This document shows, piece by piece, positions 1-13,919 of a DNA stretch of 61,577 nucleotides. Position 1 is the stretch's first letter, and each line of letters starts with the position of its first letter. The stretch is from the IMG/VR virus record IMGVR_UViG_3300035670_000212, positions 1-61,577 of that record; one strand, given 5' to 3'. The position numbers and the translations under genes are program-made. This DNA comes from a virus. Below the pieces are notes generated by a model. The model saw only the letters and a list, made by a program, of their open reading frames with translations. It had not been told where the DNA came from and ran no database searches.

Positions 1-127
1 AACCATTTCCTTGCAAGTGCCGGAAAGCTGGTCGAATCGGCGGCGCGAAGCGGCGCTGTCCGGCGCAATCCGCGCCACCAAGCGCCCCGACCTGGATAAC
101 TACGTCAAGGGAATTTTCGATGGCTGC
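1..127. repeat. Contig-end overlap, identical to 61451-61577 (circular closure)
   Basis: The same 127 nt (aaccatttccttgcaagtgccgg...ggaattttcgatggctgc) occurs at both ends. One ORF reads through the junction in frame. Confidence 0.9.
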
Positions 128-244
128 AACGGAATTCTGTGGCAAGATGACGCGCAGATTGTCGAGATAACGCTTCGCAAGGATTACGCGAGAACGCCAG
201 GGGCGACGGTGGCGGTGCGTGAACTTCAAGGCGAAGCGGCCTGA
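1..244 (+). CDS. rusA: RusA-family Holliday junction resolvase, C-terminal part (same gene as 61263..61577 across the junction)
   Basis: Open from base 2 in the frame that continues 61263..61577. ...ATKRPDLDNYVKGIFDGCNGILWQDDAQIVEITLRK... is the Asp-rich RusA catalytic segment. Stop TGA at 242-244. Confidence 0.8.
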   Translation, partial: TISLQVPESWSNRRREAALSGAIRATKRPDLDNYVKGIFDGCNGILWQDDAQIVEITLRKDYARTPGATVAVRELQGEAA

Positions 245-266
245 AACTACGCCAAAGGAGAAACCC

Positions 267-794
267 ATGATTTTCAAGGACACCGCGCAGCGCCTGCGCT
301 TCGCATTTGCATTCATCAGCCAGCCCGCATTCGTCGCAACCCTGCCGCGCAAGGTGCTGATGGCGCTACACGAATCCGGCGCGCTGGACGGCAGCAGCTA
401 TTCGCCCGAAGCGCTGGCCGCCGATGCCAAGGCGATGATCGAGGAATTGACTGCGCTCCAGCACCATGAACAGGCCGCGCTGGTGGCTTCGCATTCGTAC
501 GACTGGCCCGCGCGCCGCATCGCCTGCGACCAGTTGCGCGACCACTACCGCCCGATCCTATCGCGCATCGTGGATGACCGCCATTTGCTCGGTAAGCTGG
601 TGACGCGCCACTACATCGCCGAGCGCGAACGCGGTTCGAGCTGGAGCTTGACCAGCATCTCGCACGAATTCAACGTCGAGGCGGAACGTGTAAAACGCGC
701 CGCCGACCTGATCGACCAGCACGCCAAGGCACTGGAGCGTGCTGCCTTGCAAAGCCTGGAGGCGCGCATGGTCAAAATGGAGCATCCCGCATAA
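267..794 (+). CDS. Hypothetical protein with a C-terminal HTH-like segment (possible late-gene regulator)
   Basis: AGGAG at 256-260, then ATG 267, inside ORF 219..794. C-terminal WSLTSISHEFNVEAERVKRAADLI looks like a sigma-region-4-type helix pair. It sits just after rusA, where Q-type regulators sit in lambdoid layouts (inference). Confidence 0.55.
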   Translation: MIFKDTAQRLRFAFAFISQPAFVATLPRKVLMALHESGALDGSSYSPEALAADAKAMIEELTALQHHEQAALVASHSYDWPARRIACDQLRDHYRPILSRIVDDRHLLGKLVTRHYIAERERGSSWSLTSISHEFNVEAERVKRAADLIDQHAKALERAALQSLEARMVKMEHPA

Positions 795-816
795 CCACAA
801 CGACAGGAGAAACGAG

Positions 817-1440
817 ATGGACCCGATACACGACCGAGTGGAAGAACTGACGAAGCAGATGATCGAGCGCGTGCAGAAGGCAGAACTGGCGCTAAACCGT
901 CACGGCTTCACACAGGACGAGCGCGGCGACTGGAAAGCGCCGGGGATGCCGAATTGGGCCGGGGCGCTGGAGCTGCGCGACTACCTGGCGATGCACTTTC
1001 CCGACATTGCCAAGCAGTCCGGTAGCCTGAGCCAGAAGGCCACGCGCGCGCTGATGGAGTCCGAGCAGCGCCGCAACGATGCAGCGATCGAGTGGATCAG
1101 GTCCAGCCTTCCGAGCCTGCAACTGCGGACCCTGCATCTGATCGCTGCGCCGGAAGAGGCGCGCGAGGCCATCGCAAACATCGAAGCGCAACTGGAGGGC
1201 CGGACCATGGAGCGCGACGCGCTGCACCAGCACATCAGGCAAGCCGCCGCGCAAACGCCAGCGACCGCCCCGCCCAAGGCCGACAGCCCGGAGCTGCCCG
1301 CCGCGCCGCCGATCTTCAAGGCGATCTGGCCGGACCCTAAGACGATGAACTTCACACTGAACGACAGGCGCGACCCCTTCAACCTGGCCGAGCGCCACAC
1401 CGAACTGCGGCGCAGAAGTACAGACCTGGACGAGGACTGA
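817..1440 (+). CDS. Hypothetical protein (207 aa)
   Basis: AGGAGAAACGAG precedes ATG 817, within ORF 739..1440. G/C-ending codons dominate. A terminator follows. Confidence 0.65.
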   Translation: MDPIHDRVEELTKQMIERVQKAELALNRHGFTQDERGDWKAPGMPNWAGALELRDYLAMHFPDIAKQSGSLSQKATRALMESEQRRNDAAIEWIRSSLPSLQLRTLHLIAAPEEAREAIANIEAQLEGRTMERDALHQHIRQAAAQTPATAPPKADSPELPAAPPIFKAIWPDPKTMNFTLNDRRDPFNLAERHTELRRRSTDLDED

Positions 1441-1466
1441 GTGTTGCCAGCAAGAGACAAAAACAA

Positions 1467-1495
1467 GCGCCCCGATGATGGGGCGTTTTTATTTT
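1467..1495 (+). terminator. Rho-independent terminator
   Basis: Stem cgcccc (1468-1473) / ggggcg (1480-1485), loop gatgat, then tttttatttt. Confidence 0.8.
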
Positions 1496-1505
1496 CATCT
1501 TCCGC

Positions 1506-1535
1506 TTGCGAAGCCATAAATTGAGGTGCTACATT
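1506..1535 (+). promoter_or_regulatory. Candidate sigma70-type promoter
   Basis: TTGCGA, 18 nt spacer, TACATT, directly after the terminator and upstream of the 1572 ORF. Confidence 0.35.
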
Positions 1536-1571
1536 GGAGTCTCCAAGCAAATCATTAACTGGAGGCGTAAA

Positions 1572-1754
1572 TTGAATAAGGTAAAAGTGAAGGTCACGAC
1601 GAAGTACGGCAAGGAACTGATCTATCCTGCCTCGGAATCGGCGGAACTGTTCGCCAAGATCGCGGGCGCGAAGACGCTGACGCGCGCCAACATCGAAAGC
1701 ATCAAGCAGTTGGGATTTGAAATCGAAGTGGTCCACGAAATCACTTCGCTATGA
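1572..1754 (+). CDS. Small hypothetical protein (60 aa)
   Basis: GGAGG at 1561-1565, then TTG 1572, in the frame of ORF 1506..1754. The earlier start would lie inside the candidate promoter. Confidence 0.5.
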   Translation: MNKVKVKVTTKYGKELIYPASESAELFAKIAGAKTLTRANIESIKQLGFEIEVVHEITSL

Positions 1755-1776
1755 CAGAAAAACAAGGAGAAAAAGC

Positions 1777-3078
1777 ATGAGCGACAAAGACACCGCATCC
1801 CAATCTCATATCGAGAAAATCGCGCGCGCAATGGCAATCAAAGCTGGCTGGAGCAAGTGGGATGAAGCTAAAGACTACTGCGACACGCTGACCGGGAATG
1901 ACCCCGACGATGAGAAGGCGTACTGGATTGAACTAGCTGAGGTTGCCATTGCATCCCAATCCCAATCAGTTCCGTCCGAGCTGGCGAGCCTGAAGCGGTA
2001 CGAGCCGAACTCGCGCATTGCAGTCATGCAGCGTTCGGAGCAAGGCGACTTCGTGAAACTTGCCGACGTCCATTCCCTCTTCTCCCATAGCGCAGCTACA
2101 GGGAAGGTGCCGGAAGGGTTTGCGCTCGTGCCTCTGCGCATGACCACCGCAATGCAGCAGATCGTGACCGACGAGGATTGGCAGTGGGAAGACCTGCTTG
2201 CCGCCGCCGAGGCAATCACCGAAGACCAATACAACGAACTCGCCGCATCTCCTGCCGCTCCCCTTGCAGCAGCAGTGCCTGCCGAAGAGGCGAGCGAGCT
2301 GCTGGCAGAGTGCCGCGCCGTTTTCGATCTGATGCTGGACGGCTGCTATGAGCAGCATTTCGGCGACTTCCAGAACGGCCACGGCGAAGAGATCGGCCCG
2401 CGCATGGACGCATTGCACGCCAAACTGCGCGGCCTCGCCCCAGCAGAGCCAGCGCCTATCCTGGCGAGTGCCGAGCCTGTTGTCGTGAATGGTCAGATTG
2501 CGCGCCGCGAGAGCATCGCTGCCAACCACGATGCAATGATTATCCTCACGCAGAGTTACCCACGCGAAGCAGTCATTCAAGTCGTGGACGCGCACACTGA
2601 GCGTAATGTCGCCGCTGCTTTGGCTACTGCCCGCCTGTCCACCCCTACCGCACAAGGGACGGCAGAGCCTGTGGCCGAACTGTACGACATTCTTCAGCAA
2701 GTCGAGAAAGAGCTTGAGGGGTGTAGCTTCTCGCAGACTCTTGTGCGTGAAGGCAACAAGCAGGTTTGGCGCTACATCGGAAACGGCAGGATCGTAGCTG
2801 ACCGAGTGAAAGCAGCAGTCAAAGACTACCGCCACATCGCTGCACAAGCTCCAGCAGGACGCGATGCGCAGCCTTTCCCGCTGATTATCGACATCGGCTA
2901 CCGCAAGACGCTGCGCCGCGAAGACCGCGTGCATGGCCCGCATGGCTGGCTGCTCTACGACGAGAACGGCAAGCTGGTGCGCGCCCTGAACTTCTACGAG
3001 GCCAACTTCGTGGATTCCGCAATCCTGGCAATGGGCGGCAAGTCTCATGCAGCAGAGCAGGCAAGTGGAGGTGCGTGA
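1777..3078 (+). CDS. Hypothetical protein (433 aa)
   Basis: AAGGAGAAAAAGC precedes ATG 1777, in ORF 1717..3078. Strong G/C third-position bias. The stop overlaps the next start. Confidence 0.75.
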   Translation: MSDKDTASQSHIEKIARAMAIKAGWSKWDEAKDYCDTLTGNDPDDEKAYWIELAEVAIASQSQSVPSELASLKRYEPNSRIAVMQRSEQGDFVKLADVHSLFSHSAATGKVPEGFALVPLRMTTAMQQIVTDEDWQWEDLLAAAEAITEDQYNELAASPAAPLAAAVPAEEASELLAECRAVFDLMLDGCYEQHFGDFQNGHGEEIGPRMDALHAKLRGLAPAEPAPILASAEPVVVNGQIARRESIAANHDAMIILTQSYPREAVIQVVDAHTERNVAAALATARLSTPTAQGTAEPVAELYDILQQVEKELEGCSFSQTLVREGNKQVWRYIGNGRIVADRVKAAVKDYRHIAAQAPAGRDAQPFPLIIDIGYRKTLRREDRVHGPHGWLLYDENGKLVRALNFYEANFVDSAILAMGGKSHAAEQASGGA

Positions 3079-3365
3079 TGGCTGCCGCTGATTACCGCCT
3101 GTGCGACGTGTGCGAGGGCAAAGCCTTCTACGACTCGAATCTGAGCTACGAGTGGGGGCCAGCCGAGTATCGCCCCGACGATCCACCATACCGCATCGCA
3201 GGTGCCGAGCAGTACGAAGACCCGGCGATTAACCACCGTAGCGGGATGCGCCTCGGCTACTTGGGCGATTGGGCCGTACTGTGCAACGACTGCTCTAAAA
3301 CGCACCGCACGATGATTGTACCAATAGAGGCCGCCGCCCCTACCGCTGAAGGAGAAAAGAAGTGA
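3078..3365 (+). CDS. Small Cys-pair (CxxC...CxxC) hypothetical protein
   Basis: GGAGG at 3067-3071. ATG 3078 overlaps the upstream TGA (TGATG). Contains CDVC and CNDC pairs. Confidence 0.65.
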   Translation: MAAADYRLCDVCEGKAFYDSNLSYEWGPAEYRPDDPPYRIAGAEQYEDPAINHRSGMRLGYLGDWAVLCNDCSKTHRTMIVPIEAAAPTAEGEKK

Positions 3366-4384
3366 CCAATACCACCGCATTAGACCTGGACCGCCAGCGC
3401 GCCGAGTTTGAGGCTTGGCTTTCCGAGAACATGCCAAATGCAGGCGCAGTGATGCGGCAAGTCGCTGAAAAATCATGGCAAGCCGCCCTTGCTCGCCGCT
3501 CCACTTCCTCAGTAAGCGAAGGAGAGATGCCGGAACTGCCGGATGAGACCGAGCCGCAATGGTGGTTTGACCTGCACGCCGCCGCTGCCGCGCTCGAAGA
3601 CTTTGGCGCGACCGGCAACGCTGCCAGTGTCTGCAAGATCGCCAACCAGTTGCTCGCCGCCACTAAGGCAGCAGCACCTGCTGATGCGCCGAAAGTGAGC
3701 CTTGCGCATTTGCTTGATCTGGTTGAGCAGGCCCAGGCGCTGCCAGACTGGTCCACCACCGCACCGATCACGCTGACGCCCATCCAGATCGCCTACGTCG
3801 CCGGGAAATTGGCCGACTTGCGCGCTGCACAAGTACCCGCTACCGGCATTCCGACTGCGGGAGAGGTGGCGAAGGCTGTTCAAGTATTTACCTGCAAGGG
3901 CAAGGGCGGCGAATATGAGCTAGTCGGCTATTCCAACGGCGCGGGCCCGAAGCGCGGGGAAAGCATCGTCGTGTACCGCGACACTACCAAGCCCGATGTC
4001 TTCTACCATCGCAGCCGAGAAGACTTCAGCGAGCGCATGGAATGGCTCGGAGGCCGCGCACCAATCTCCACCACTCATACATCAGGAGAGGTGGAGAAAG
4101 CCGGGTGGATCAGCGTCGAGGATGATCGCAAGCCGAAAGGCCGCACGCCGATTCTGGTCACGGTCGATTACGTGCGCTACGGCGAGTATGAAGATGGTAC
4201 GTCGGGCGAGTGGCGCGGGCAGATCGTGACCGAGGGAGAGTACGTGCCCCAGCACGGCGAGGTGGGCGACTACTTCACTAGCTACAGCAGCCCGCACGGC
4301 GACGGTGAAGCGGTAACGCACTGGATGCCCATTCCCGCCCCGGCCCAGCCGAAGGACACCACGGACACCCGGAGGGATGCATGA
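3362..4384 (+). CDS. DUF551-domain protein with a variable N-terminal region
   Basis: AAGGAG, then GTG 3362 (GTGA overlap). C-terminal GWISVEDD...AVTHWMPIPAP matches the DUF551 signature (W..V.D..P ... THWMPLP). Confidence 0.7.
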   Translation: MTNTTALDLDRQRAEFEAWLSENMPNAGAVMRQVAEKSWQAALARRSTSSVSEGEMPELPDETEPQWWFDLHAAAAALEDFGATGNAASVCKIANQLLAATKAAAPADAPKVSLAHLLDLVEQAQALPDWSTTAPITLTPIQIAYVAGKLADLRAAQVPATGIPTAGEVAKAVQVFTCKGKGGEYELVGYSNGAGPKRGESIVVYRDTTKPDVFYHRSREDFSERMEWLGGRAPISTTHTSGEVEKAGWISVEDDRKPKGRTPILVTVDYVRYGEYEDGTSGEWRGQIVTEGEYVPQHGEVGDYFTSYSSPHGDGEAVTHWMPIPAPAQPKDTTDTRRDA

Positions 4385-5670
4385 GCACCGAGCGCAAAGA
4401 GTTTGAATCGTGGGTGGCGCGCGTGCGCCTTCCTTACTGCGACACGCCTGCCGACCGCGCACAGCAATGGATCGGCTGGCAAGGGTGCCGCGCATCTCCT
4501 GCCGCTGCTGTACCAGAAGGTGCGCTGCCACCGCTGCCGACCGAGAAGTTGCTGCGGATAATTGCCGAGAACACCGGCAAGCGCATCAACCTGAGCCTTG
4601 ACGATCTCGACCAATACCTGTCAGTTGCCCGTGCTGCTGTAGAAGCGGATCGAGCGCAGCGCCCCGAGAATACTCAGCAGCAGGAGGGGTGTGATTCCGC
4701 CCTGCGCGCGGAACCGGCATGGCGCAAGACTCAAGCGCCGTGCTCTGTTTGCGAAGGCCAGAACTACCAGTGTCACCACTGTGACGGTATGGGCATTGAG
4801 CCGCGCAAGATCGATCACTACGGCGACTGCCGGTGCGTCCTGTCGCAATACTGCGACGGCAAATGCAACCCGGTATTTGCCGATGAGTTGGCTTCCCGGT
4901 GCCGCGCGGAGGGCGGCGATGGTGCAAATCGAACTACTACAGATTCTGTAGCAGTTGGGGCGGATCGAGCGCAACAAGGCGAGCCGGTAGCATGGGCCTG
5001 CGCGCTCAACCTTGATCACACTCCGATGGAAACGCCTGATGTCGAATGGGGCGCGGAATGCACATGGGCGCCCGAGTTCAAACCTTTTCCGCTCTACCGC
5101 GCTGCCACCAAGGCAGCAGCAGCTGCTGATGCGCCGAAGTTGTCACGTAACGAGATTCAGGACATGGCATTCGCCTACTGCCCATCGGGGCAGATTGGCG
5201 AGCTGCAAGAGTTCGCTGAAGCGTTGTTGGCAAGGGTCGCTGCACCAGTACCCGATACCGGCGACCGGGCACCTGCTGGGGATGCGCGAGAAGAGGTGCA
5301 GCAGAAGATCGACCTCCAGCTTTGCGTGCTCGAATGGAACCGCGCGCAGAGCAAGCCGCCTATCGAGATCGGGAAGGAATACTTCGTCGCGCAGGAGATC
5401 GCCGCAATGCTCGCCCGCCGCGCATCTTCCACTCCCGCTGTTCCGGGAACGAAGGTAGTGCCGATCACGCCGACCCTGGAGATGGTCAAGGCAGGCGATG
5501 CAACCCTGAACGGGCGCGGAACCTGTGTGCTGGCGTGGCGCGCGATGCTCGCTGCCGCTCCCTCCCATCCATCAGAGGCGAAGACCTGCACCTGCCCAAG
5601 CGGAGACGGATCGTTGCGCTGGCCCTGCCAGGTGCATCCATCAGAGGCGAAAGCCGGGGAGGATGCGTGA
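4381..5670 (+). CDS. Hypothetical protein (429 aa), shares modules with 3362..4384
   Basis: ATGA start/stop overlap at 4381. Shares ...TKAAA(P/A)ADAPK(V/L)S... and ...VP(A/D)TG... segments with the upstream protein. Cys-rich central region. Duplicated HPSEAK at the C-terminus. Confidence 0.7.
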   Translation: MSTERKEFESWVARVRLPYCDTPADRAQQWIGWQGCRASPAAAVPEGALPPLPTEKLLRIIAENTGKRINLSLDDLDQYLSVARAAVEADRAQRPENTQQQEGCDSALRAEPAWRKTQAPCSVCEGQNYQCHHCDGMGIEPRKIDHYGDCRCVLSQYCDGKCNPVFADELASRCRAEGGDGANRTTTDSVAVGADRAQQGEPVAWACALNLDHTPMETPDVEWGAECTWAPEFKPFPLYRAATKAAAAADAPKLSRNEIQDMAFAYCPSGQIGELQEFAEALLARVAAPVPDTGDRAPAGDAREEVQQKIDLQLCVLEWNRAQSKPPIEIGKEYFVAQEIAAMLARRASSTPAVPGTKVVPITPTLEMVKAGDATLNGRGTCVLAWRAMLAAAPSHPSEAKTCTCPSGDGSLRWPCQVHPSEAKAGEDA

Positions 5671-6389
5671 ATGAGCTGGCTCTTTTCGCAGGTGCTGGTG
5701 GAGGAATTCTCGGTGGCAAGCTGCTTGGGTGGACAACCGTCTGTGCAGTTGAACGTGATGCCTACGCAGCACAAGTTTTGGCGCAACGACAAAACGATCG
5801 ATGCCTCCGACCATTCCCTATTTGGTCTGACGTTACGAGTTTTGACGGAAGACCATGGGCAGGAATTGTTGATGTCGTATCGGGCGGCTTTCCGTGCCAG
5901 GATATCAGCGCGTCGGGAAAGGGCGCTGGACTCGATGGCGAGCGAAGCGGACTTTGGGCCGAAATGGCGCGGGTCGTTCGCGAGGTTCAACCTCGATACG
6001 TCTACGTGGAAAACTCCCCAATGCTCACTTCTCGGGGACTCGGAAGAGTTCTCGGAGACCTGGCCGGTATGGGGTTCGATGCGCAATGGGGAGTGCTGGG
6101 CGCTCACCACACCGATGCTCCGCACGAGAGAGAAAGAATCTGGATTCTTGCCGACTCCGGACGCCAGCATGGGCGCGAGGGGGGCGTCAACGAACAAGAC
6201 GAATCGCCGGCCGGATGGCTCAAAAAGGCAAGTAACCATCAACGATATCGTGGGTGGCCGACCGAACCCGACGTGGACCGAATGGGTAATGGGGTGGCCC
6301 ATCGGGTGGACCGACTTAAAGCCGTTGGAAACGGACAGGTTCCAAGAGTGGCGGCAGCAGCATGGGATATTTTAAGAGGCAAATCATGA
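5667..6389 (+). CDS. dcm: DNA (cytosine-5)-methyltransferase, compact 240-aa form
   Basis: GGGGAGG, then GTG 5667. Motifs occur in canonical order: LFAGAGGG (I), GGFPCQDIS (IV), ENSP (VI), HERERIWILA (VIII), RLKAVGNGQVP (X). Confidence 0.85.
   Translation: MNELALFAGAGGGILGGKLLGWTTVCAVERDAYAAQVLAQRQNDRCLRPFPIWSDVTSFDGRPWAGIVDVVSGGFPCQDISASGKGAGLDGERSGLWAEMARVVREVQPRYVYVENSPMLTSRGLGRVLGDLAGMGFDAQWGVLGAHHTDAPHERERIWILADSGRQHGREGGVNEQDESPAGWLKKASNHQRYRGWPTEPDVDRMGNGVAHRVDRLKAVGNGQVPRVAAAAWDILRGKS
5671..6375 (+). CDS. Co-extensive +1-frame ORF (234 aa, Trp-rich) at the methyltransferase locus; candidate second product
   Basis: ATG 5671 immediately follows the upstream TGA (GTGAATG). The frame is open to 14 nt before the MTase stop. 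Protein-like composition with WKTPQCSLL, ETWPVWGSMRNGECW, LPTPDAS and NPTWTEWVMGWPIGWTDL. Confidence 0.4.
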   Translation: MSWLFSQVLVEEFSVASCLGGQPSVQLNVMPTQHKFWRNDKTIDASDHSLFGLTLRVLTEDHGQELLMSYRAAFRARISARRERALDSMASEADFGPKWRGSFARFNLDTSTWKTPQCSLLGDSEEFSETWPVWGSMRNGECWALTTPMLRTREKESGFLPTPDASMGARGASTNKTNRRPDGSKRQVTINDIVGGRPNPTWTEWVMGWPIGWTDLKPLETDRFQEWRQQHGIF

Positions 6390-6748
6390 ACGAAAAAGAT
6401 ATGGTTATTGCGTCAGCAAAAGTCGCTGGAATCAAAGGAAAGTGGGATCAAGGCACCTTCGTTTTGAGGAATCCGATGGCCGATCAATGCAGCTCTTGGA
6501 ATCCTGTTTGGGATGTTTGCGACGCAGTTTTCTTGGCATGCAAATTATCCATGAGGATTTACTTCTCGCTTGAAGCGGTGACGATCTACAAAGGAGAAAT
6601 AACGGTCCAAGAAAATGTGGGTGATGATGGGATGGCTGCTCTGCGGAGTGCAATCGTTCAAGTGGCTGTTGAGTTGCATGAAGAAGACAAGAGATCAAGA
6701 CAACAGCGTCGGGCCGCTCCTGCGCACCCAGGAGAAGAAGGGAAGTGA
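6386..6748 (+). CDS. Hypothetical protein (120 aa), lower-GC gene; possibly NinX/DUF2591-like
   Basis: ATG 6386 overlaps the MTase stop (ATGA). ...SSWNPVWDVCDAVFLACKLSM... resembles the W.P..D..qa..L motif of DUF2591-type phage proteins (weak). Confidence 0.6.
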   Translation: MNEKDMVIASAKVAGIKGKWDQGTFVLRNPMADQCSSWNPVWDVCDAVFLACKLSMRIYFSLEAVTIYKGEITVQENVGDDGMAALRSAIVQVAVELHEEDKRSRQQRRAAPAHPGEEGK

Positions 6749-6784
6749 CCTGTTGCGCTGCTCGCACGACACGATGAAAATATC

Positions 6785-6813
6785 TTGCGTCATAAGTTTA
6801 TCTGATATATATT
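6785..6813 (+). promoter_or_regulatory. Candidate sigma70-type promoter
   Basis: TTGCGT, 17 nt spacer, TATATT, in an AT-rich gap upstream of the 6863 ORF. Confidence 0.45.
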
Positions 6814-6862
6814 GTGTCCATGGGCAGCGCAATGGTGCGCGGCGATAAAAGGAGAAGAGAAA

Positions 6863-7069
6863 ATGAAAGTAGCTGCAATCCTGCTGGTGCTGTGCGCGCT
6901 GGCCGCGCTGGCGATGCACTTGGCATGGCGTGATCTGCCGGAACTGGAGGCGATGACGGACGAGCAGTTGGAGCAGGAATCGTGGTGGGAGGCGCAAAGC
7001 GGTCGCTACCGCAACAAGTACAGCCGCGAGCTGGAGCGCCGCGCCAAGCAGCGCCATGGTGCGCAATGA
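6863..7069 (+). CDS. Small membrane-anchored protein (68 aa)
   Basis: AAAGGAGAAGAG precedes ATG 6863. N-terminal hydrophobic helix VAAILLVLCALAALAM. Confidence 0.6.
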   Translation: MKVAAILLVLCALAALAMHLAWRDLPELEAMTDEQLEQESWWEAQSGRYRNKYSRELERRAKQRHGAQ

Positions 7070-7197
7070 AGCGCCTGATGCTGGGCTTGACGGACGCCGA
7101 GCGCCGCCAGATGCAGCAGAACCGCTCGGCGCGCCGCTGCATGCTGCTGCTGACGCTGTGCATCGTCGTCGTGGGAATGATCGAGAAGTTTTCATAA
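7066..7197 (+). CDS. Small membrane protein (43 aa)
   Basis: ATGA overlap at 7066. C-terminal hydrophobic helix CMLLLTLCIVVVGMI. Confidence 0.45.
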   Translation: MKRLMLGLTDAERRQMQQNRSARRCMLLLTLCIVVVGMIEKFS

Positions 7198-7213
7198 AAA
7201 AGGAGAAATCAAA

Positions 7214-7669
7214 ATGAGCAGCACCATCGAAAAGCGCCCCGCCGAGTTGCGCGCTGGCGACATCGTGAACTACGACTGCGGCGCGTTCATCATCCTGAAA
7301 ATCAGGAACATGAGCGTGGAAGGCTCGGTCGATGCCTATGTTGTCGAGTGCAACGACATCGTGCCGACCGTCGTACTCATGACCTTCACCGGCACCTGCT
7401 ACGTGACCGGCCCATCCATGACGCCAGCGCAGCAGAACGCCGAGGAACTGCTTGCGCTGGTGCGCAATTATGGGACTGTCAGCCTATCGAGCTGGGAATG
7501 CACCGCGCTCGACCTACTCGCCCGCATCGATCCGCCAAAGCCGCCAAGCGCCGAGGAACTGGCGCAAGTCATGGAATATCTCATGCTCGGCCGCACGAAC
7601 CCTCCGCGCGCCGTCGAGATGCTGGAGCGCGCCCGCGCTGCTGGATGCCTGAAAGGCGGCGAGAAATGA
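7214..7669 (+). CDS. Hypothetical protein (151 aa)
   Basis: AGGAGAAATCAAA precedes ATG 7214. Listed in the ORF track. Confidence 0.7.
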   Translation: MSSTIEKRPAELRAGDIVNYDCGAFIILKIRNMSVEGSVDAYVVECNDIVPTVVLMTFTGTCYVTGPSMTPAQQNAEELLALVRNYGTVSLSSWECTALDLLARIDPPKPPSAEELAQVMEYLMLGRTNPPRAVEMLERARAAGCLKGGEK

Positions 7670-7923
7670 GCGGCGCGAAGCCTACGGGCGGCCCGGCATT
7701 CCCGGTCGTGATCGAACCAACCGCACAAGGTCGTGCATCTGGCGAAAAACCGCAGGTCTGCACCGGCCTGACGATCCGCGACAGTTTCGCCATCGCTGCA
7801 TTGCAAGGCGCGCTCTCTGGCGCGCTGGCTGATGGTTCGCATCTCGGTGAGGAATCGCCGCGCCAGTTCGCCGAAATGGCCTACAAGATTGCCGACGCCA
7901 TGATGACGGAGCGCGCCAAATGA
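7666..7923 (+). CDS. Hypothetical phage protein (85 aa)
   Basis: ATGA overlap at 7666. GGPAFP...TIRDSFAIAALQG is a pattern common in small phage proteins. Confidence 0.6.
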   Translation: MSGAKPTGGPAFPVVIEPTAQGRASGEKPQVCTGLTIRDSFAIAALQGALSGALADGSHLGEESPRQFAEMAYKIADAMMTERAK

Positions 7924-8096
7924 GCGAAGCACAAGTGCTGGGCCTGCTCCTGATCGTTTTCGTCCTGCTCCTGCTGCTCGCCATGCTGGCGCGCTCCATC
8001 GGCTGGCGCGAGACGATCAAGGACTTGCTGATCGCGGTCGGCTTCACGCTGGCGCTGTTTCTGGGGATGGGATTGCTGACAGGGAGGATTGCCTGA
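7920..8096 (+). CDS. Small two-helix membrane protein (58 aa), not in the ORF track
   Basis: ATGA overlap at 7920. Two hydrophobic helices: VLGLLLIVFVLLLLLAML and LLIAVGFTLALFLGMGLL. Stop TGA at 8094-8096. Confidence 0.5.
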   Translation: MSEAQVLGLLLIVFVLLLLLAMLARSIGWRETIKDLLIAVGFTLALFLGMGLLTGRIA

Positions 8097-8179
8097 CACT
8101 AGCCGGAAGGAAAGGAAACCCGGACAATAGACCAGCCCGCCAGCGGCCCGCCTGGCACATCTGCCCGAGGAAAACGACC

Positions 8180-8374
8180 ATGTACCGCGAAAGCTTTGAA
8201 GAATACTTGGCAAGGATAGACCAGCAGATACAAGAGGCCCGCGCCAAGAAATCGCCCGGCCTCGACAGGCGACAGAAAAACCAGCCGCTACCCGAGGGCA
8301 TGGAAGACAGAAGAAAGCTCGCCGACCGCCGCAAGGGGCGGCAAGGCGTCAGAGAAAAGGAGAAGCAGGAATGA
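8180..8374 (+). CDS. Small basic hypothetical protein (64 aa)
   Basis: GAGGA upstream of ATG 8180. The stop overlaps the next start. Confidence 0.5.
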   Translation: MYRESFEEYLARIDQQIQEARAKKSPGLDRRQKNQPLPEGMEDRRKLADRRKGRQGVREKEKQE

Positions 8375-8682
8375 GCTACGAGATACCCAACGAACTAGTC
8401 AAATTCCGCGTCGAGACCATCAAGGGCGAGGACGTTTTGATCTTCGACCACGACGCATCGCTGATGGACCGCGAAGTCGCGCGCCAGATTTACGAAGCCG
8501 ACAAGCCCAAGCGAGACGCACTAGACGCAGCGCGCTGGCGATTCTTTGACGATCACGCGCAGGATATTGTCGAGGGCAGTTCGCTGGCGGCGTGGCTCAA
8601 ATTTGACGGCCCCATGAAGCACGGATCGCGCGCCGCCGCAATTGACTTCCTCATCGCAGCAGAGAAGGAGTCCGAGAAATGA
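8371..8682 (+). CDS. Hypothetical protein (103 aa), paralog-like to 8679..8948
   Basis: ATGA overlap. Shares DAAR(W/Y)R and the C-terminal IAAEKE motif with the next gene. Confidence 0.65.
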   Translation: MSYEIPNELVKFRVETIKGEDVLIFDHDASLMDREVARQIYEADKPKRDALDAARWRFFDDHAQDIVEGSSLAAWLKFDGPMKHGSRAAAIDFLIAAEKESEK

Positions 8683-8948
8683 CAGGCCGAACCATCAGCG
8701 AAGAAATCGTGGAAATTTTCAATATCCTGAAAACCCCACGCACCTGGCCGCCGCAGCAAACAGACATCGACGCCATCGACGCCGCCCGTTACCGCAAGTT
8801 GCGCCAGCACTTTAAGAACCGCGAGGCGGACTTGCAACTGTGGGGCTTCAAGTTCAAGGACCAGGACACGGTTGGCGGCGAAGACGACCTGGACGACTTC
8901 TGCGACCAAAGCATCGCAGCAGAGAAGGAGCAAGCAAATGGACAGTAA
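8679..8948 (+). CDS. Hypothetical protein (89 aa)
   Basis: ATGA overlap. DAIDAARYRKL and SIAAEKE motifs. Confidence 0.6.
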   Translation: MTGRTISEEIVEIFNILKTPRTWPPQQTDIDAIDAARYRKLRQHFKNREADLQLWGFKFKDQDTVGGEDDLDDFCDQSIAAEKEQANGQ

Positions 8949-9363
8949 CCGCAGCACACTGAGCCAGCGCGCCCTGGACTGGTACGACAAGGAGCAGGTC
9001 GAGAACGAATACGGCATCAACCGCGACAGCTTCCACCTGTTCGTACTCGGCCTGATTGACGAACTGACCGGCGCGGAAGACTGGATCAAGGTCGAAGACA
9101 GCCTTCCTGAAGGGGAGTGCCTGGCGATCTACGTCACGCCAGCAGGAAAGCGCCGGATGATCCGCGCCAAGTACGCACGTCAGTTCCAGATCGAAGCCGA
9201 GGGCGACGACTGCGAGACCGAATACAACGAGGACGACGACACCTTCTACATCAAAGCTGGGTGGCTGGAGTGCATCGACAACTGGGGCGAGTATTCGAGC
9301 TGCTATGTGGTCGAAGGGGCTGTGACGCACTGGAAGCGCCTACCAGCCCCGCCGTCCGATTGA
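8938..9363 (+). CDS. DUF551-domain protein (141 aa)
   Basis: AAGGAGCAAGCAA precedes ATG 8938. WIKVEDSLPEGE...AVTHWKRLPAPP matches the DUF551 signature. Confidence 0.7.
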   Translation: MDSNRSTLSQRALDWYDKEQVENEYGINRDSFHLFVLGLIDELTGAEDWIKVEDSLPEGECLAIYVTPAGKRRMIRAKYARQFQIEAEGDDCETEYNEDDDTFYIKAGWLECIDNWGEYSSCYVVEGAVTHWKRLPAPPSD

Positions 9364-9387
9364 GTCTGTACGCTGCCGCACCCCAAG

Positions 9388-9409
9388 GCCCGCCGCGCGC
9401 GGGCTTTTT
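9388..9409 (+). terminator. Rho-independent terminator
   Basis: Stem gcccgc / gcgggc with loop cgcgc, followed by ttttt (9405-9409). Confidence 0.7.
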
Positions 9410-9491
9410 CATTATATGTTGTAAATAAACAACCCGACAGTATCGTGGCAAGGATTACCATTGAGCAATCTCGTCAGAGGAATCCTACGCC

Positions 9492-9737
9492 ATGCCAGCC
9501 CGCGAAATCCAGCCGCACATGCCCCAAGTCGGGCGCTCCGTCTACTACTGGCCGATGCAGGAAGACAAGCTGCTCGACCATCCGCAGCCGCACTATGCCG
9601 TGATCGTCTTCGTGAACGACAACGGCACGATCAACCTGGCGATCTACAACGAGCGCGGCTTTCCCTACCGCCGCTGCCGCGTCCCGCTCGTCACCGACCG
9701 CCGCCCGCAATCGGGCGAGGCATCATTCCCGCCGTGA
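9492..9737 (+). CDS. Small hypothetical protein (81 aa)
   Basis: AGAGGA upstream of ATG 9492. Listed in the ORF track. Confidence 0.6.
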   Translation: MPAREIQPHMPQVGRSVYYWPMQEDKLLDHPQPHYAVIVFVNDNGTINLAIYNERGFPYRRCRVPLVTDRRPQSGEASFPP

Positions 9738-9916
9738 CCACCATCGAGCAAATCCGCGCCTGGAGCACCTACCCAGACCGGCTTTGCTTCATCGTCAGGC
9801 GTGCCAATAAAGCAATCCTGCTCCTGCCCGACGACATCGACTCGCGCACCGACACCCAGCTGCAAGCATTCATCGAAGAGAAGTTCAACACCACCAGGGA
9901 GAAAACACCATGCTGA
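9734..9916 (+). CDS. Small hypothetical protein (60 aa)
   Basis: GTGA overlap with the upstream stop. In the frame of ORF 9461..9916. Confidence 0.45.
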   Translation: MTTIEQIRAWSTYPDRLCFIVRRANKAILLLPDDIDSRTDTQLQAFIEEKFNTTREKTPC

Positions 9917-10053
9917 AGAAGACCGTCGAGACCACCCAGAACGAAGACCTGCGCACCACCATTACCACCACCTACCTGATCTGGGGCTTCATCATTTACC
10001 AGAAGAGTATCGACAAGGCCGTGCTGCTGACCTTCCCGCAGGCGAAGTTCTGA
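9910..10053 (+). CDS. Small hypothetical protein (47 aa), not in the ORF track
   Basis: AGGGAGAAAACACC precedes ATG 9910. Stop TGA at 10051-10053 overlaps the next ATG (TGATG). Confidence 0.45.
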   Translation: MLKKTVETTQNEDLRTTITTTYLIWGFIIYQKSIDKAVLLTFPQAKF

Positions 10054-10214
10054 TGGCGCACTTCCCGGAGAACATATCGCGCCATGACCGCACAGAGGAA
10101 TTGCGGAAAAGGCTTATGCACTCCGCAACTATGGCCTGGTATCTGGAGTTCCATGCGCCAAAACGCAATCCAGTGCGATTGGCTGTGCGATACGCCCTGA
10201 TGAACTGGCATTAA
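10053..10214 (+). CDS. Small hypothetical protein (53 aa)
   Basis: ATG 10053 is coupled to the upstream stop. In the frame of ORF 9801..10214. Confidence 0.45.
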   Translation: MAHFPENISRHDRTEELRKRLMHSATMAWYLEFHAPKRNPVRLAVRYALMNWH

Positions 10215-10245
10215 AGCGTAGCAATCTCCAGTTAATTGCATGTAG

Positions 10246-10437
10246 TCACTTCTCAGTGATACCATACGGCAACGGAGCAATGCGGTTATGGGCGATGAGC
10301 AGTTCTAGATAGGCAGTCGCGTACGGGGGCGGATCATTGCCCCATGCGCTGACGGTTCTGGCGTTGAGCTTTAGTCGTCTCGCAAGAGCAGCTTTGGTAA
10401 GACCGGCCTGAGCCAGTAGTTTTTTGAATTCAGACAC
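10246..10437 (-). CDS. XRE/Cro-type HTH DNA-binding protein (63 aa)
   Basis: GGAGG, 5 nt, then GTG on the minus strand. ...GLTKAALARRLKLNARTVSAWGN... is a classic helix-turn-helix. Confidence 0.7.
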   Translation of the reverse strand: MSEFKKLLAQAGLTKAALARRLKLNARTVSAWGNDPPPYATAYLELLIAHNRIAPLPYGITEK

Positions 10438-10484
10438 TCAAGCCTCCATAAGAAATCTACGTTACAATCAAAAACATCTACATT

Positions 10485-10988
10485 ATGGCAGCAAAAGGCA
10501 AAACTGAGAAAGAAACCGCATCAAGAAGCGGCTACTCCCAAGAGGTTGCTGATGAGATTTGCGAGCGCATGTCGAATGGCGAACCATTGCGCGAAATTTG
10601 CCGGGATGACCGGATGCCAGCTTGGCGAACTGTGTACGCATGGCAGGAGGCAAAGCCAGAGTTTCGTGCACGCATCGCATACGCGCGCGAGATGGGCGAG
10701 GAAGCCATTGCCCAAGATTGTATGCGGATTGCTGATACGCCACTGCTAGGTGAAGAGGTAGAAGAGAGCGCCAACGGGATGAAGATCAAGCGTGGCGACA
10801 TGCTTGGACATCGCAAGCTTCAGATTGAAACTCGGCTAAAGCTGCTAGCGAAATGGAACCCGCGAAAGTGGGGTGAAAAAGTTGATGTTAATCATGGCGG
10901 GCAGACAGAAAACCCGCTCGCCATCCTCATGAGCCAGGTGGCGGGGAAGACGCTGAAGCCCGTTGCCAATCCAGAGGATGATGAATGA
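10485..10988 (+). CDS. terS: Terminase small subunit
   Basis: YSQEVADEICERMSNGEPLREICRDDRMPAWRTVYAWQEAKPEFRARIAYAREMG matches the HTH-type TerS family pattern. Immediately upstream of and overlapping terL. Confidence 0.8.
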   Translation: MAAKGKTEKETASRSGYSQEVADEICERMSNGEPLREICRDDRMPAWRTVYAWQEAKPEFRARIAYAREMGEEAIAQDCMRIADTPLLGEEVEESANGMKIKRGDMLGHRKLQIETRLKLLAKWNPRKWGEKVDVNHGGQTENPLAILMSQVAGKTLKPVANPEDDE

Positions 10989-13342
10989 GCGCAGTTTTGG
11001 GTTATCAGCCAATTGACCAAATGGACGAGGATCAGTTCAGCTCCGCGCTTGCTGACCCGATGTTTCGCTTATCCAATTTATATTGGATCAAAACTAAAAC
11101 GGAAAGTGATGACGAGGGCGACGAAGGTTTGGTGGTTCGCTTCAGGCCCAATCAATACCAGAAAAGGCTTCTGAAAAGGCTGCATCACCGCAATATAATT
11201 TTGAAAGCCCGCCAATTGGGCTTCTGTTGCGACCCTGCAACGCGAGTTCTCACCGCTGACTTGCGCTGGGTTCCTATTGGCGCGTTACAGGTCGGACAGG
11301 AAATCGTCGCTGTCGATGAACATCCTGCCGGTGGGCGCGGCTCCGAGCGCAAGATGCGCACCGCTACTGTGCGGGCAGCAGCCAAGGTGCACCGCAAGGC
11401 ATACCGCATCACTTTTGATGATGGCCGTAGCGTAACGTGTACCGATCAGCACCCATGGCTATCCAAAAAGGCGGGGACTAGTGCTGAATGGCGCAGCTTG
11501 AGTGGCAAGGGAAATCAGGTCGTTGGGAAGCTCAAAGTTGGTACGAATGTGCGATGGGTTGCCAAGCCATGGAGCGACGAGCGCACATTTGATGACGGCT
11601 GGATGGGAGGCATGCTTGATGGCGAGGGAAGCATGGCGAAGCCGTGCAGTAGTGGTGCAGAAATCAATGTCTCGCAGGTGCAAGGCCCAGCTTTCGGGCG
11701 CATGGAGATGTACCTGTCGCAGCGTGGCTACCACTACCGTACGGAAGAAGATCAGCCGGTTCGCAAGAGTAAGTTCGGCAAGACAGCAGTGCATAAACTG
11801 TGCGTCAGCCGCATGGACGAGTTGTTTCGGCTGATAGGCCAAACCCGCCCTATTCGCTTCCTTGGGCGTCATTTCTGGGAAGGCAAGGGCCTGCCAGGCA
11901 AGCGCAATGGTGATGTTGGCTGGGCCAAGATCACGCACATCGAAGAGTTGGGCGAGCAGACGATGATCGATCTGCAAACTTCAACTGGAACCTATATTGC
12001 CGAAGGTTTCGTGTCACACAACACGACCCTGATCCAGATTCTCTTCCTGGACTATGCCCTGTTCACGCCCAACGTGCGCTGCGGCGTGATCGCGCACACG
12101 GATGACGCGGCGCTGAAAGTGTTCAAGAAGATCAAGTTCGCATACGACCGCCTGCCCGACATCCTGAAGGCATCGGTTCCGCTCAAGACCTGCAACGCCC
12201 ACGAAATGGAGCTTGCGAACGGCTCGGTGCTGACGGTGGGCACGTCGATGCGCTCGGACACGATCCACTATCTGCACATCTCCGAATTCGGAAAAATCTG
12301 CGCCCAATTCCCGCTGCGCGCCGAAGAGGTCATTACCGGCACGATCCCAGCCGTGCCCAATAGCGGCGTGATCTTCATCGAATCGACCGCCGAGGGGCGC
12401 GACGGGGCATTCTTCAAGATGAGCCAGCGCGCCGAAGCGCTGATGCACCAGGGGAAGGCGCTCACGCCCAAGGAATACCGTTTCCACTTCTTCCCATGGC
12501 ATGACGCCGATGAATACCAGATCGACCCGGCAGGCGTCATCCTGTCGGCGCGCGACAATGAATATTTCGATCTGCTTGAAGCGAAGGTCGGCAAGACGAT
12601 CACCCCGGCGCAGCGCGCATGGTGGATTTCCACGCGCGACAACGACTTCGCGGGCGAAGACTCGAAGATGTGGCAGGAATACCCGTCCACGCCCGAGGAA
12701 GCATTCCAGCAGTCCACCGCTGGCACCTATTACGCCGTGCAGCTTGCCAAGGCCCGCAAGGAAAAGCGCATCGGCAAGGTTCCCTACATGCCAGGCATCC
12801 CTGTCAATACCTTCTGGGACATCGGCCACGGCGACGGTACCGCGATCTGGTTCCACCAGCGCGTCGGACAGAATGACCACTTCATCAACTTCATCGAGGG
12901 ATGGGGCGAGCCTTATGCGCACTTCGTCAAGGAGATGCAAAAGCTCGACTACGTCTGGGGCACGCATTACCTGCCGCACGACGGCAATCATGTCCGCCAG
13001 GGCGAACTGGAGAACCTGTCGCCCAAGCAGATGCTGGAAAAGCTGGGCCTTCGACGCCTGGAAATCGTACCCGTCGTGGCCGAACTCCAGCACGGCATCA
13101 GCGCCGTGCGCGACGCTTTCGCCTCCTACTGGTTCGATGAAGAACGCTGCAAGGAAGGCATCGCCCACATCGAGCTGTACAAAAAGAAGTGGAACAACAC
13201 GACACAGACCTTTACGGACCAGCCGCTGAAGGATATTCACACCGAGGCGGCGGACGCCCTGCGGCAGCATGCTCAAGGCTTCAAGGTCTCGAACGGGCCG
13301 GATAGCTGGAAGCGCCCACAACGAAGCTGGAAGTCCAGCTGA
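10985..13342 (+). CDS. terL: Terminase large subunit, interrupted by an intein
   Basis: The extein junction ...ILKARQLGF|TTLIQILF... restores a terminase Walker-A-type KARQLGF(S/T)T box. A C-terminal nuclease-like region is present (DIGHGDGTAIWF ... HYLPHDG). Confidence 0.85.
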   Translation: MSAVLGYQPIDQMDEDQFSSALADPMFRLSNLYWIKTKTESDDEGDEGLVVRFRPNQYQKRLLKRLHHRNIILKARQLGFCCDPATRVLTADLRWVPIGALQVGQEIVAVDEHPAGGRGSERKMRTATVRAAAKVHRKAYRITFDDGRSVTCTDQHPWLSKKAGTSAEWRSLSGKGNQVVGKLKVGTNVRWVAKPWSDERTFDDGWMGGMLDGEGSMAKPCSSGAEINVSQVQGPAFGRMEMYLSQRGYHYRTEEDQPVRKSKFGKTAVHKLCVSRMDELFRLIGQTRPIRFLGRHFWEGKGLPGKRNGDVGWAKITHIEELGEQTMIDLQTSTGTYIAEGFVSHNTTLIQILFLDYALFTPNVRCGVIAHTDDAALKVFKKIKFAYDRLPDILKASVPLKTCNAHEMELANGSVLTVGTSMRSDTIHYLHISEFGKICAQFPLRAEEVITGTIPAVPNSGVIFIESTAEGRDGAFFKMSQRAEALMHQGKALTPKEYRFHFFPWHDADEYQIDPAGVILSARDNEYFDLLEAKVGKTITPAQRAWWISTRDNDFAGEDSKMWQEYPSTPEEAFQQSTAGTYYAVQLAKARKEKRIGKVPYMPGIPVNTFWDIGHGDGTAIWFHQRVGQNDHFINFIEGWGEPYAHFVKEMQKLDYVWGTHYLPHDGNHVRQGELENLSPKQMLEKLGLRRLEIVPVVAELQHGISAVRDAFASYWFDEERCKEGIAHIELYKKKWNNTTQTFTDQPLKDIHTEAADALRQHAQGFKVSNGPDSWKRPQRSWKSS
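11225..12022 (+). mobile_element. Intein (266 aa) in the TerL ATPase P-loop, with a LAGLIDADG-like endonuclease segment
   Basis: Begins with Cys (CCDPATRVLTADL...), ends ...AEGFVSHN, and is followed by Thr (+1 nucleophile). Internal WMGGMLDGEGSM resembles a LAGLIDADG motif. Confidence 0.8.
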
Positions 13343-13359
13343 TAACCAAGGAGAAGAGA

Positions 13360-13491
13360 ATGAGCGAAGATTTGCAGCAATGGAGTGTGGCTCACAATAA
13401 ATGGCAGAAAAGAGCAAGGGTGACTATGAAAGTTCTCGCTTGGCTTGGTATTGCGACATGGGTCTATGTGATGTATCGAGTGTATCCATGA
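13360..13491 (+). CDS. Small membrane protein (43 aa), not in the ORF track
   Basis: AAGGAGAAGAGA precedes ATG 13360. Hydrophobic helix VLAWLGIATWVYVMY. The stop overlaps the next ATG (ATGA at 13488-13491). Confidence 0.5.
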   Translation: MSEDLQQWSVAHNKWQKRARVTMKVLAWLGIATWVYVMYRVYP

Positions 13492-13919
13492 CGACCATTG
13501 CATTTGATGGTGTCACTCTCGCCGCCGACAAGCAAAGTACATCGCATGGAATGGCTCGCACCGTGACGAAGATTCGCCGCATCCGTGGTGAGCTATTTGC
13601 AATGAGCGGTGGCGGCATCCATTGCCAAGCGCTTATGAAATGGTTTGAGGGATCGCGTAACCCGAGCGAATGGCCTAAAGCGCCCGACGATGAGAGCTGC
13701 GGCAACATCATTCAAGTGACGAAGGCTGGCTTATTCGTGTGGAGTGGCGCGGGCCTTCCGCATCCAGAGCCATTAGAAGATCGATTCATGGCCTTCGGAA
13801 GCGGGCGAGACTTCGCCATGGCTGCTATGCACCTTGGCAAGAGCGCCAAAGAGGCTATCGAAATCGCCAGCATCTACGACATCGCAACGGGAATGGGCAT
13901 CGATACGCTCACCCTCTAG
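13488..13919 (+). CDS. HslV/proteasome-beta-like Ntn-hydrolase (143 aa)
   Basis: MTTIAFDG...AADKQ...TKIRRI...MSGGG...MAFGSGRDFAMAAM...AIEIASIYD parallels HslV (MTTIVSV...AGDGQ...KVRR...AGFAGG...IAIGSGGPYA). Thr2 could be the nucleophile. Confidence 0.7.
   Translation: MTTIAFDGVTLAADKQSTSHGMARTVTKIRRIRGELFAMSGGGIHCQALMKWFEGSRNPSEWPKAPDDESCGNIIQVTKAGLFVWSGAGLPHPEPLEDRFMAFGSGRDFAMAAMHLGKSAKEAIEIASIYDIATGMGIDTLTL

Follow-up and report, generated by a model that had tools for sequence, protein, structure and literature searches.

How does a gene for a cytosine-C5 DNA methyltransferase (C5-MTase) come to encode the catalytic core of the enzyme with no credible target recognition domain (TRD), and what is the function of a second reading frame that lies open over almost the whole of the same DNA? 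These questions are raised by a locus in the IMG/VR virus record IMGVR_UViG_3300035670_000212, of which the complete stretch of 61,577 nucleotides (positions 1 to 61,577, hereafter 'the window') was analysed. Frame A, the proposed alpha subunit, runs on the plus strand from GTG 5667 to TGA 6389 and encodes the 240 amino acids of a C5-MTase catalytic core. Frame B, the proposed beta subunit, is in the +1 frame relative to A and runs on the same strand from ATG 5671 to TAA 6375 (234 amino acids); its stop lies 14 nt upstream of the frame-A stop and the overlap comprises 234 of 240 codons. The initial annotation of the window offered three explanations, namely an overprinted gene pair (one frame for the catalytic core, the other for a TRD-like polypeptide), programmed frameshifting from A to B and back to A, and a recently frameshifted gene. 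The openness of both frames, the complementary selection upon them and the homology of B to a TRD support the first of these, and we consider it likely that the locus encodes a two-polypeptide (alpha/beta) C5-MTase from almost completely overlapping genes with nested starts and a single Shine-Dalgarno element. Our confidence is highest for the coding status of both frames and lower for the subunit model.

The C5-MTases M.AquI and M.EcoHK31I have been given as exceptions to the monomeric organisation of these enzymes (PMC3404938). In M.EcoHK31I from Escherichia coli, which recognises YGGCCR, the alpha polypeptide carries motifs I-VIII and X together with the predicted TRD and the beta polypeptide carries motif IX; beta is encoded entirely within the alpha gene in a different frame, both polypeptides are required and the N-terminal 42-67 residues of beta matter for its association with alpha (PMC2836561). 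The original description of this enzyme is that of Lee, Kam and Shaw (1995), as cited in PMC2836561 and PMC3404938. Given this published precedent, the novelty implied by the initial annotation was somewhat overstated; our literature searches returned no description of the phage A/B family considered here.

The product of frame A is a bona fide member of the C5-MTase class. The open reading frame (ORF) beginning at GTG 5667 contains, in canonical order and as first noted, FAGAGGG (motif I, 5685-5705), GGFPCQDIS (motif IV, 5883-5909), ENSP (motif VI, 6009-6020), HERERIWILA (motif VIII, 6123-6152) and GNGQVP (motif X, 6327-6344), all on the plus strand, the last of these being overlapped by the tail of frame B, KPLETDRFQEWRQQH (6319-6363). 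It scores 104.3 bits against Pfam PF00145, above the gathering threshold of 22 (E=1.2e-29, residues 4-164), and matches phrog_363 over its full length (E=6e-62). The Pfam and Protein Data Bank (PDB) alignments of A end, however, at about residue 162, and a Foldseek search superposes the protein on the large domain only of M.HhaI and M.HaeIII (~170 of 327 residues), from which we conclude that A is without the small (TRD) domain. In the AlphaFold2 model, a Rossmann-like core and the helices of motif X (residues 211-237, predicted local distance difference test (pLDDT) score 72-81) are folded, whilst residues 168-220 have a pLDDT below 50 and are predicted to be disordered. The interval between motifs VIII and X consists of 58 unconserved residues, and no TRD or motif IX is found there on the same chain. 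Within it, the 'passenger' stretch of residues 168-220 (GREGGVNEQDESPAGW...EPDVDRMGNGVAHRVDRLKAV; 6168..6326, plus strand) belongs to a region whose conservation in A is 0.18-0.37 over codons 161-200, and this stretch is probably translated only as the link from motif VIII to motif X. The disorder and lack of conservation of these residues bear out the earlier view that the MTase frame has no credible TRD.

Separate homology searches with the two translations, a check proposed at the outset, gave PF00145 for A and, for B, thousands of homologues with no Pfam domain. Frame B has no match in Pfam or NCBIfam but matches phrog_1008, labelled 'DNA methyltransferase', at E=2.4e-23, and its C-terminal tail matches two small PHROGs of unknown function (phrog_26627 and phrog_35493). 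There are 3,306 full-length homologues at 40-69% identity, with zero Pfam domains between them and almost all named 'hypothetical', and an exhaustive B-family profile search retrieves 31,604 cluster representatives (50% identity) at E<=1e-3 and 4,757 at E<=1e-30. Phrog_1008 was also followed as a lead, for B-like and motif X-like segments combined in one profile, and was rejected when the PS-1 and phiRSP annotations both proved to be frame A.

Frame B, like frame A, is made up of recognisable modules, all on the plus strand. Its N-terminus, MSWLFSQVLV (5671..5700), lies over the lead-in to A motif I, NELALFAGAG, where both frames are constrained. A mid-module, WKTPQCSLL...ETWPVWGSMRNGECW (6007..6099), lies over A motifs VI-VII in DNA that is dual coding, and the B residues W113, T115, W131, P132, G135 and G140 are invariant in 100 sequences. 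This is followed by LPTPDAS (6148..6168), a single W/LPTPxA repeat unit of the TRD, homologous to the in-frame repeats of Mycobacterium phage Wachhund gp69, and by a motif IX-like element, NPTWTEWVMGWPIGWTDL (6265..6318), over which B is the selected frame. The protein ends in KPLETDRFQEWRQQHGIF, within a conserved family tail of the form KPLExDKFxEW..H. Its composition includes the 12 Trp residues counted in the initial annotation, and the shadow ORF chosen there for comparison (12501..13229) is indeed rich in Arg, Ser, Thr and Pro. Peptides specific to frame B are FNLDTSTWK, NGECWALTTPMLR and TPQCSLLGDSEEFSETWPVWGSMR.

The identity of these modules is indicated by single-chain relatives of the enzyme. 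In Wachhund gp69, motifs I-VIII, LLPTPxA repeats, FPEWMMGWPAGW and GNGVVP all lie in one frame, such that the B-type motifs are found in frame with motifs I-VIII. The signature named in the initial annotation (WPTP repeats and NP.F.EW(L/M)MG.P.GWT) does occur between motifs VIII and X, in gp69 and in thousands of its relatives. The repeat and EWLMGWP region of B aligns with gp69 with a pairwise E=8e-7 and an hhalign probability of 96%; NPTWTEWVMGWPIGWTDL aligns with Wachhund FPEWMMGWPAGW immediately upstream of motif X, and in the single-chain relatives the segment directly before motif X gives a significant alignment with NPTWTEWVMGWPIGW. As the C-terminal region of gp69 itself matches 4,069 proteins, mostly single-chain PF00145 enzymes of 330-420 amino acids, the C-terminal half of B is, judged by these alignments, homologous to a genuine TRD/motif IX module of single-chain C5-MTases. 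The actinophage enzymes of this kind (Wachhund gp69, Martik, Yorick, Tweety gp72 and others; PF00145) share with the A/B pair the core motifs, LLPTPxA, FxEWMMGWPxGW and GNGxVP, in the same order. They differ in being one polypeptide of 330-470 amino acids from one frame, over which the +1 frame is B-like only across motifs IV-VIII and then stops.

Before a function is assigned to frame B, it must be asked whether the frame codes for anything, or whether it is a non-coding by-product of A (a shadow ORF arising by chance or from base composition) or the remnant of a recently frameshifted pseudogene. There are grounds for such caution. Synonymously shuffled +1 frames still reach 6-100 bits against the B hidden Markov model (HMM), such that part of the similarity amongst B sequences is due to the conservation of A, and the window carries a further long ORF over the same DNA, a 375-codon antisense frame (5175-6302, minus strand) spanning most of the dual-coding gene. 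This antisense ORF is a chance feature, the equivalent frame being open in just 3 of 108 homologous loci. In the window the third forward frame is closed, with a longest open run of 120 codons, and at homologous loci it has a median open run of 31 codons.

That frame B is different is seen first in the window itself. Of the 15 internal NTG codons of A, 12 precede a G, 3 precede a C and none precedes an A, and the sole NTA-A of the frame is the TTA-A at codon 236 which forms the B stop, exactly as the initial annotation had it. When the A protein and its codon usage are held fixed, 3.3 stops are expected in B, which is open in 0 of 200 synonymous shuffles; with B fixed, 7.0 stops are expected in A, which is likewise open in 0 of 200. 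Across 142 loci the median number of stops expected is ~5 in B when A is held fixed and ~8 in A when B is held fixed, and the probability of an open frame is ~0/200 in essentially all of them, including genes of 46-50% GC. Considering only the passenger segments in 85 non-redundant loci (A identity <80%), 3.6 stops are expected in B over motifs I-VIII, with a mean probability of openness of 0.011, and 2.65 in A over the variable region (TRD), with a mean probability of 0.094. Against the B-family HMM, the real +1 frames of myco-, cyano-, Paenibacillus and Stenotrophomonas phages score 5-9 standard deviations above their synonymous shuffles. A further argument from composition fared less well: the GC content at third positions (GC3) of A, 0.51, is lower than in two neighbouring genes (0.66 and 0.79), as had been remarked, but the point is weak because the gene just downstream has a GC3 of 0.47.

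The arrangement recurs widely. Two samples of loci were assembled, 167 found through B and 69 found through A with A intact. In the former, A is open over all of B in 151 of 167 loci and retains all four A motifs in 145 of 167; in the latter, B is open to within 30 codons of the A stop in 68 of 69 and stops 32 codons before it in the remaining one. Both frames are open and co-extensive in six unrelated phages (Salmonella S9-5, Acinetobacter ABMM1, Pseudomonas phPA-G, Ralstonia Gerry, Microcystis Mel-JY01 and Vibrio 1.236.O), with the B ATG at the same position relative to NELALFAG of A, and dual-open loci come from phages of Proteobacteria, Cyanobacteria and others. The B ATG and the N-terminus MSWLFSQ are kept in nearly all loci, and B is always accompanied by the A frame in the ~250 loci examined. 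The same arrangement is thus conserved in at least ~200 sampled phage and prophage loci and is probably present at many thousands. These loci are not near-identical copies of one another (A sequences in the set of 108 are less than 80% identical), and conservation across very divergent phages excludes a recent frameshift.

The codon positions reveal which frame is selected in each part of the gene. Assignment from codon-position entropies gives both frames over codons 1-10 of A (NELALFAGA and MSWLFSQAL, both conserved >0.9, H3=0.40 bits), frame A over codons 11-160 (motifs I-VIII), frame B over the W/LPTPxA units of the TRD repeats, where B third positions are saturated at 1.8-1.96 bits in the anchored units, frame B again over codons of about 195-220 of A (NPxWVEWLMGWPIGWTDLKPL) and frame A over codons 221-235 (motif X). 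In the motif IX-like region conservation is 0.82-0.85 in B against 0.72-0.75 in A and the variation falls mostly at the B third position. At A-conserved residues with at least four synonymous codons many third positions are saturated, at up to 1.9 bits, and A synonymous sites are frozen wherever the B residue is conserved. Thus A Ala133 is GCC in 100% of sequences (background 32%) where B Pro132 is fixed, Gly136 is GGG in 99% (background 18%) at B Gly135, Val68 is GTT in 98% (background 33%) at B Leu67 and Ala10 is GCT in 98% (background 20%) at B Leu9; Leu4 is xTG in 103 of 104 at the fixed B Trp3, and Ala5 (GCT, 93%) and Gly11 (GGT, 91%) are further examples. This freezing of A shows that amino-acid selection acts on the N-terminal half of B too and not only on its C-terminus.

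Both ORFs are, then, kept open by selection, and amino-acid-level selection acts on each of them in complementary segments. The suppression of synonymous variation which the initial annotation had set as a check is found at the homologous loci, B has significant homologues and its frame is open in homologous MTase genes, each the reverse of what had been named there as grounds for abandoning the overprinted pair. The notion of a by-product or pseudogene, to which we attach next to no probability, is refuted by the comparative data: by the shuffles, by the B-frame codon signature over the TRD and motif IX, by the frozen A codons and by conservation in phages from several phyla, which the antisense ORF does not share.

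The start region suggests how two proteins could be produced from one message. A single Shine-Dalgarno element, GGGGAGG (5656..5662, plus strand), is common to A and B and lies 4 nt upstream of the A GTG and 8 nt upstream of the B ATG. The nested start module GTGAATG (5667..5673, plus strand) comprises the A start GTG 5667, the stop TGA 5668-5670 of the upstream gene and, adjoining this stop, the B start ATG 5671, in agreement with the initial reading of the region. The context xTGAATGAG(C/T)TGG is near-universal across homologous loci. In 99 non-redundant loci, a start codon is present at -4 relative to the B ATG in 83, 76 have an SD-like (Shine-Dalgarno-like) tetramer upstream, and in 42 the embedded TGA closes an upstream ORF of 50 codons or more.

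We therefore propose the following scheme for the two-subunit enzyme. Ribosomes recruited by the one Shine-Dalgarno element, or re-initiating after the upstream TGA, would start at either GTG 5667 or ATG 5671. Frame A would yield alpha, composed of the S-adenosylmethionine-binding catalytic large domain (motifs I-VIII), a disordered filler serving only to bring the ribosome to motif X, and motif X itself. Frame B would yield beta, whose N-terminal part, encoded over motifs I-VIII, may dock on alpha in the manner of the N-terminus of M.EcoHK31I beta, and which would then supply the elements of the small domain, first a module of the form SWKT...ETWP.WG.MRNG, next one or more W/LPTPxA repeats (TRD) and last NPxWxEWLMGWPxGW, which resembles motif IX. 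The two chains are envisaged to assemble into an active enzyme that methylates phage DNA. Translation of both frames, formation of the heterodimer, the need for both chains and the role of the repeats in specificity are all predictions from sequence and from analogy with the characterised two-polypeptide enzymes.

Comparison with these enzymes by their described architecture is instructive. As in M.EcoHK31I, there are two polypeptides, alpha has motifs I-VIII as well as X, and a beta frame under selection lies within the alpha gene. In M.EcoHK31I, however, a shorter beta is nested internally, whereas here the overlap is near-total, the starts are 4 nt apart and there is one ribosome binding site; the predicted TRD is in alpha there, whereas here the TRD-like region is assigned to beta, by the W/LPTPxA repeats and by the B-frame codon signature, and only filler is left in alpha; and the present enzyme is a phage/prophage orphan rather than part of a characterised restriction-modification pair. 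The beta of M.EcoHK31I was, moreover, rescued by Met codons internal to it. The best explanation of the A/B pair is that it carries the M.EcoHK31I principle as far as a complete overlap and has the TRD in beta instead. M.AquI of Agmenellum quadruplicatum is similarly split, with motifs I-VIII on a core subunit and the distal variable region on the other (PMC3404938). An apparent actinophage analogue of this split, on the evidence of motif order, is found in Mycobacterium phage Phanphagia, which has two overlapping annotated methylase genes: gp65 carries motifs I-VIII and gp66, in the +1 frame with a 251 nt overlap, carries ETFPTSGMTRSG, LLPTP repeats, FPEWMMGWPAGW and GNGVCP in order. In M.AquI and Phanphagia the small subunit carries motif X and the genes overlap only in part, whereas in the window motif X is in alpha and the overlap is total; motifs IX and X stand together on the small chain in gp66 and not in the window. 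The B-like module ETFPTSGMTRSG of Phanphagia lies over alpha motifs VII-VIII, and since gp66 carries both contiguously we place the mid-module of B on the same polypeptide as the TRD. With classical same-strand overprinted viral gene pairs (PMC8227390) the locus shares one product that is largely disordered alone and a constraint that alternates between frames. It differs from them in that the second frame is an ancestral, homologous enzyme domain and not a de novo accessory protein, and in that the pair is found, on a very large scale, in tailed phages with double-stranded DNA (dsDNA) and in prophages.

Several results weigh against a two-subunit enzyme. In hhalign comparisons of the B family with the C-terminal half of M.HhaI, using an M.HhaI sequence partly verified by PDB alignment, the sole alignment falls exactly on motif IX (KLHPRECARVMGYPDSY with LNPxWVEWLMGWPiGWT) but has E=0.15, such that the assignment of motif IX against M.HhaI is positional. 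The B-family profile has no match to PDB sequences at E up to 10, and the AlphaFold2 model of B alone (pLDDT 52, predicted template modelling score 0.22) is too poor for a fold search. Poor single-chain models are common for overprinted or partner-dependent chains. An A-B-A chimera constructed in silico, in which B sequence replaces the A filler, extends the Pfam alignment by 34 residues and gains only ~5 bits; against the PDB, both the chimera and native A align to M.HhaI only up to motif VIII. A is broken and B intact in about 10% of the B-ascertained loci. Finally, the loci are phylogenetically non-independent and any combined probabilities from them are illustrative only. A Pfam search of unusually long B-family members for Rosetta-stone fusions returned nothing informative.

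These observations invite the explanation that B is a real, translated overprinted protein with a function of its own (DNA binding, regulation or anti-defence, for instance) and not a subunit of the MTase, in which case A would work alone with a minimal recognition surface or need another partner. The failure to match Pfam, NCBIfam or the PDB, the low-confidence fold and the loci with a broken A, given which B could be able to function without A, are all consistent with this. So too is Wachhund, where the +1 frame over motifs IV-VIII (1333-1869 of the locus) is open for 178 codons and scores 55 bits, against 12±8 for shuffled sequences, even though a TRD is present in frame; the mid-module may therefore do something other than TRD delivery, a point that also counts against our proposal. 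This +1 frame ends in a degenerate motif IX-like 'FNDWAELPMSW'. We nonetheless judge an independent B unlikely. In thousands of bona fide single-chain C5-MTases the TRD/motif IX segment is homologous to the C-terminal half of B, and these are precisely the elements that A is without and in whose place it has disordered filler; the B-like module of Phanphagia runs in frame into motifs IX and X; and in ~250 loci B is never found apart from the A frame. The damage to A is mostly by single nonsense hits, the others being one indel, one HNH-like insertion and four stops in the filler, and most of the broken-A cases have the look of such isolated nonsense changes or of errors in assembly. In locus L097 the change turns A Gln78 from CAG to TAG and is silent in B (Ala76, GCC to GCT).

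The insertion is in IMGVR_UViG_3300043823_000105, where an HNH-endonuclease-like ORF (…KCERCGGTQTLHRHHLDHNP…CQICHGTLHANERW…) at ~3150-3600 of the locus separates B motif IX from motif X and shifts motif X into the B register. It may be a homing-endonuclease or intron-like insertion.

The four filler stops bear on programmed recoding. Here ribosomes would translate A as far as motif VIII, enter B by a +1 shift to read the TRD and motif IX and return by a -1 shift to A for motif X, giving one chain, with junction peptides ...IWILATPDASMGAR or ...GWTDLKAVGNGQVPR; in a partial version, a -1 slip would yield a fusion of beta with motif X. The resulting order, A(I-VIII), B(TRD, IX), A(X), is the canonical single-chain layout seen in Wachhund, and the selective signal changes frame at just these junctions. 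The 'TTA AAG' after GWTD holds a shift-prone A-AAG that is fairly conserved, and in loci L104 and L107 (at the same position, 'NAT*T'), L120 and L162 a stop interrupts the A filler while motif X downstream is still conserved, which counts against our proposal as well and would point, for these lineages, to readthrough, to re-initiation or to an enzyme in three pieces. The AAG site is, however, absent from L104 and L107, the loci most in need of a slip. Recoding requires neither that B be open and conserved over motifs I-VIII nor that A be open over the TRD, and both are maintained, as are the B ATG and N-terminus in nearly all loci. Just 1 of the 85 loci has a canonical X_XXY_YYZ heptamer, there is no conserved slippery site and both frames are open end to end; 59 of the 85 genes have no homopolymer run of six or more, and no stop or rare-codon +1 site is found in A downstream of motif VIII. 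Two efficient shifts within one gene are, to our knowledge, without precedent. On balance, the frameshifting alternative of the initial annotation seems to us very improbable, more so than an independent B.

If the two-subunit enzyme is accepted for this locus, its relatives gain in interest. We are inclined to think, with somewhat less assurance than for the window itself, that obligate two-subunit C5-MTases form a very large class in the tailed phages and prophages of several phyla, read from the same ~700 nt, and that the variable W/LPTPxA array of beta sets the target specificity; the scale of the class is taken from the number of called B-frame protein clusters. The number of strict [WLFY]PTP units per B protein varies from 0 to 5 across relatives, and the overlapped A frame remains open. 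Multispecific MTases exist in Bacillus phages and, by analogy, several specificities might possibly arise from the beta repeat array. A modular beta could let phages change their methylation specificity quickly and so evade restriction. Were the family to work in this way, the split, overlapped C5-MTase would be a major phage solution and not a curiosity, and a function would be gained for >30,000 'hypothetical protein' clusters. The A/B genes would be among the longest and most widespread same-strand dual-coding pairs in cellular or dsDNA-virus genomes, with an overlapped alpha frame that tolerates any filler that stays open. The family, in which hundreds of divergent genes each show a change of driver and passenger frame along their length and in which whole-repeat-unit indels must keep both frames, is a strong natural data set for the study of codon sharing by two proteins and for benchmarking overlap detectors.

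The arrangement has been missed because annotators keep only one frame. Either A ('DNA cytosine methyltransferase') or B ('hypothetical protein') is picked without a consistent rule, and PGAP keeps A only. Several phages (loci L003, L004 and L006) annotate B alone, as 'hypothetical'. In Stenotrophomonas phage SOVA965 the B-frame ORF alone is annotated, as 'DNA-cytosine methyltransferase', and the true catalytic frame is unannotated, and in Paenibacillus phage Lily the B frame appears as a 'g62 internal gene'. If B is translated as we propose, any clone of the 'MTase gene' silently co-expresses beta, and for this reason published assignments of activity to the alpha ORF alone may be wrong.

Some features of the surroundings complete the description. 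The upstream gene (4381-5673, 429 amino acids) is in the same frame as B, with only TGA 5668-5670 between them, and its stop is overlapped by the A GTG (GTGA); its product is Cys-rich and has a weak PHROG match (phrog_3956, E=2e-4). At the other end, the A stop forms an ATGA overlap (6386..6389, plus strand) with the start of the downstream gene (6386..6748, phrog_5086), and the same ATGA is found in 32 of the 99 loci. A megablast search of positions 1-20000 of the window against 50,697 deposited phage genomes found no close relative, the only matches being a stretch of ~230 nt near 15.9-16.1 kb with 75% identity to the portal gene of a Klebsiella phage and one of 89 nt at the MTase start; the source virus appears to be a novel phage. 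In Microcystis phage Mel-JY01, a gene for S-adenosylmethionine synthase (1-977 of the locus) lies two genes upstream of the A/B pair, which suggests that this phage brings its own methyl donor.

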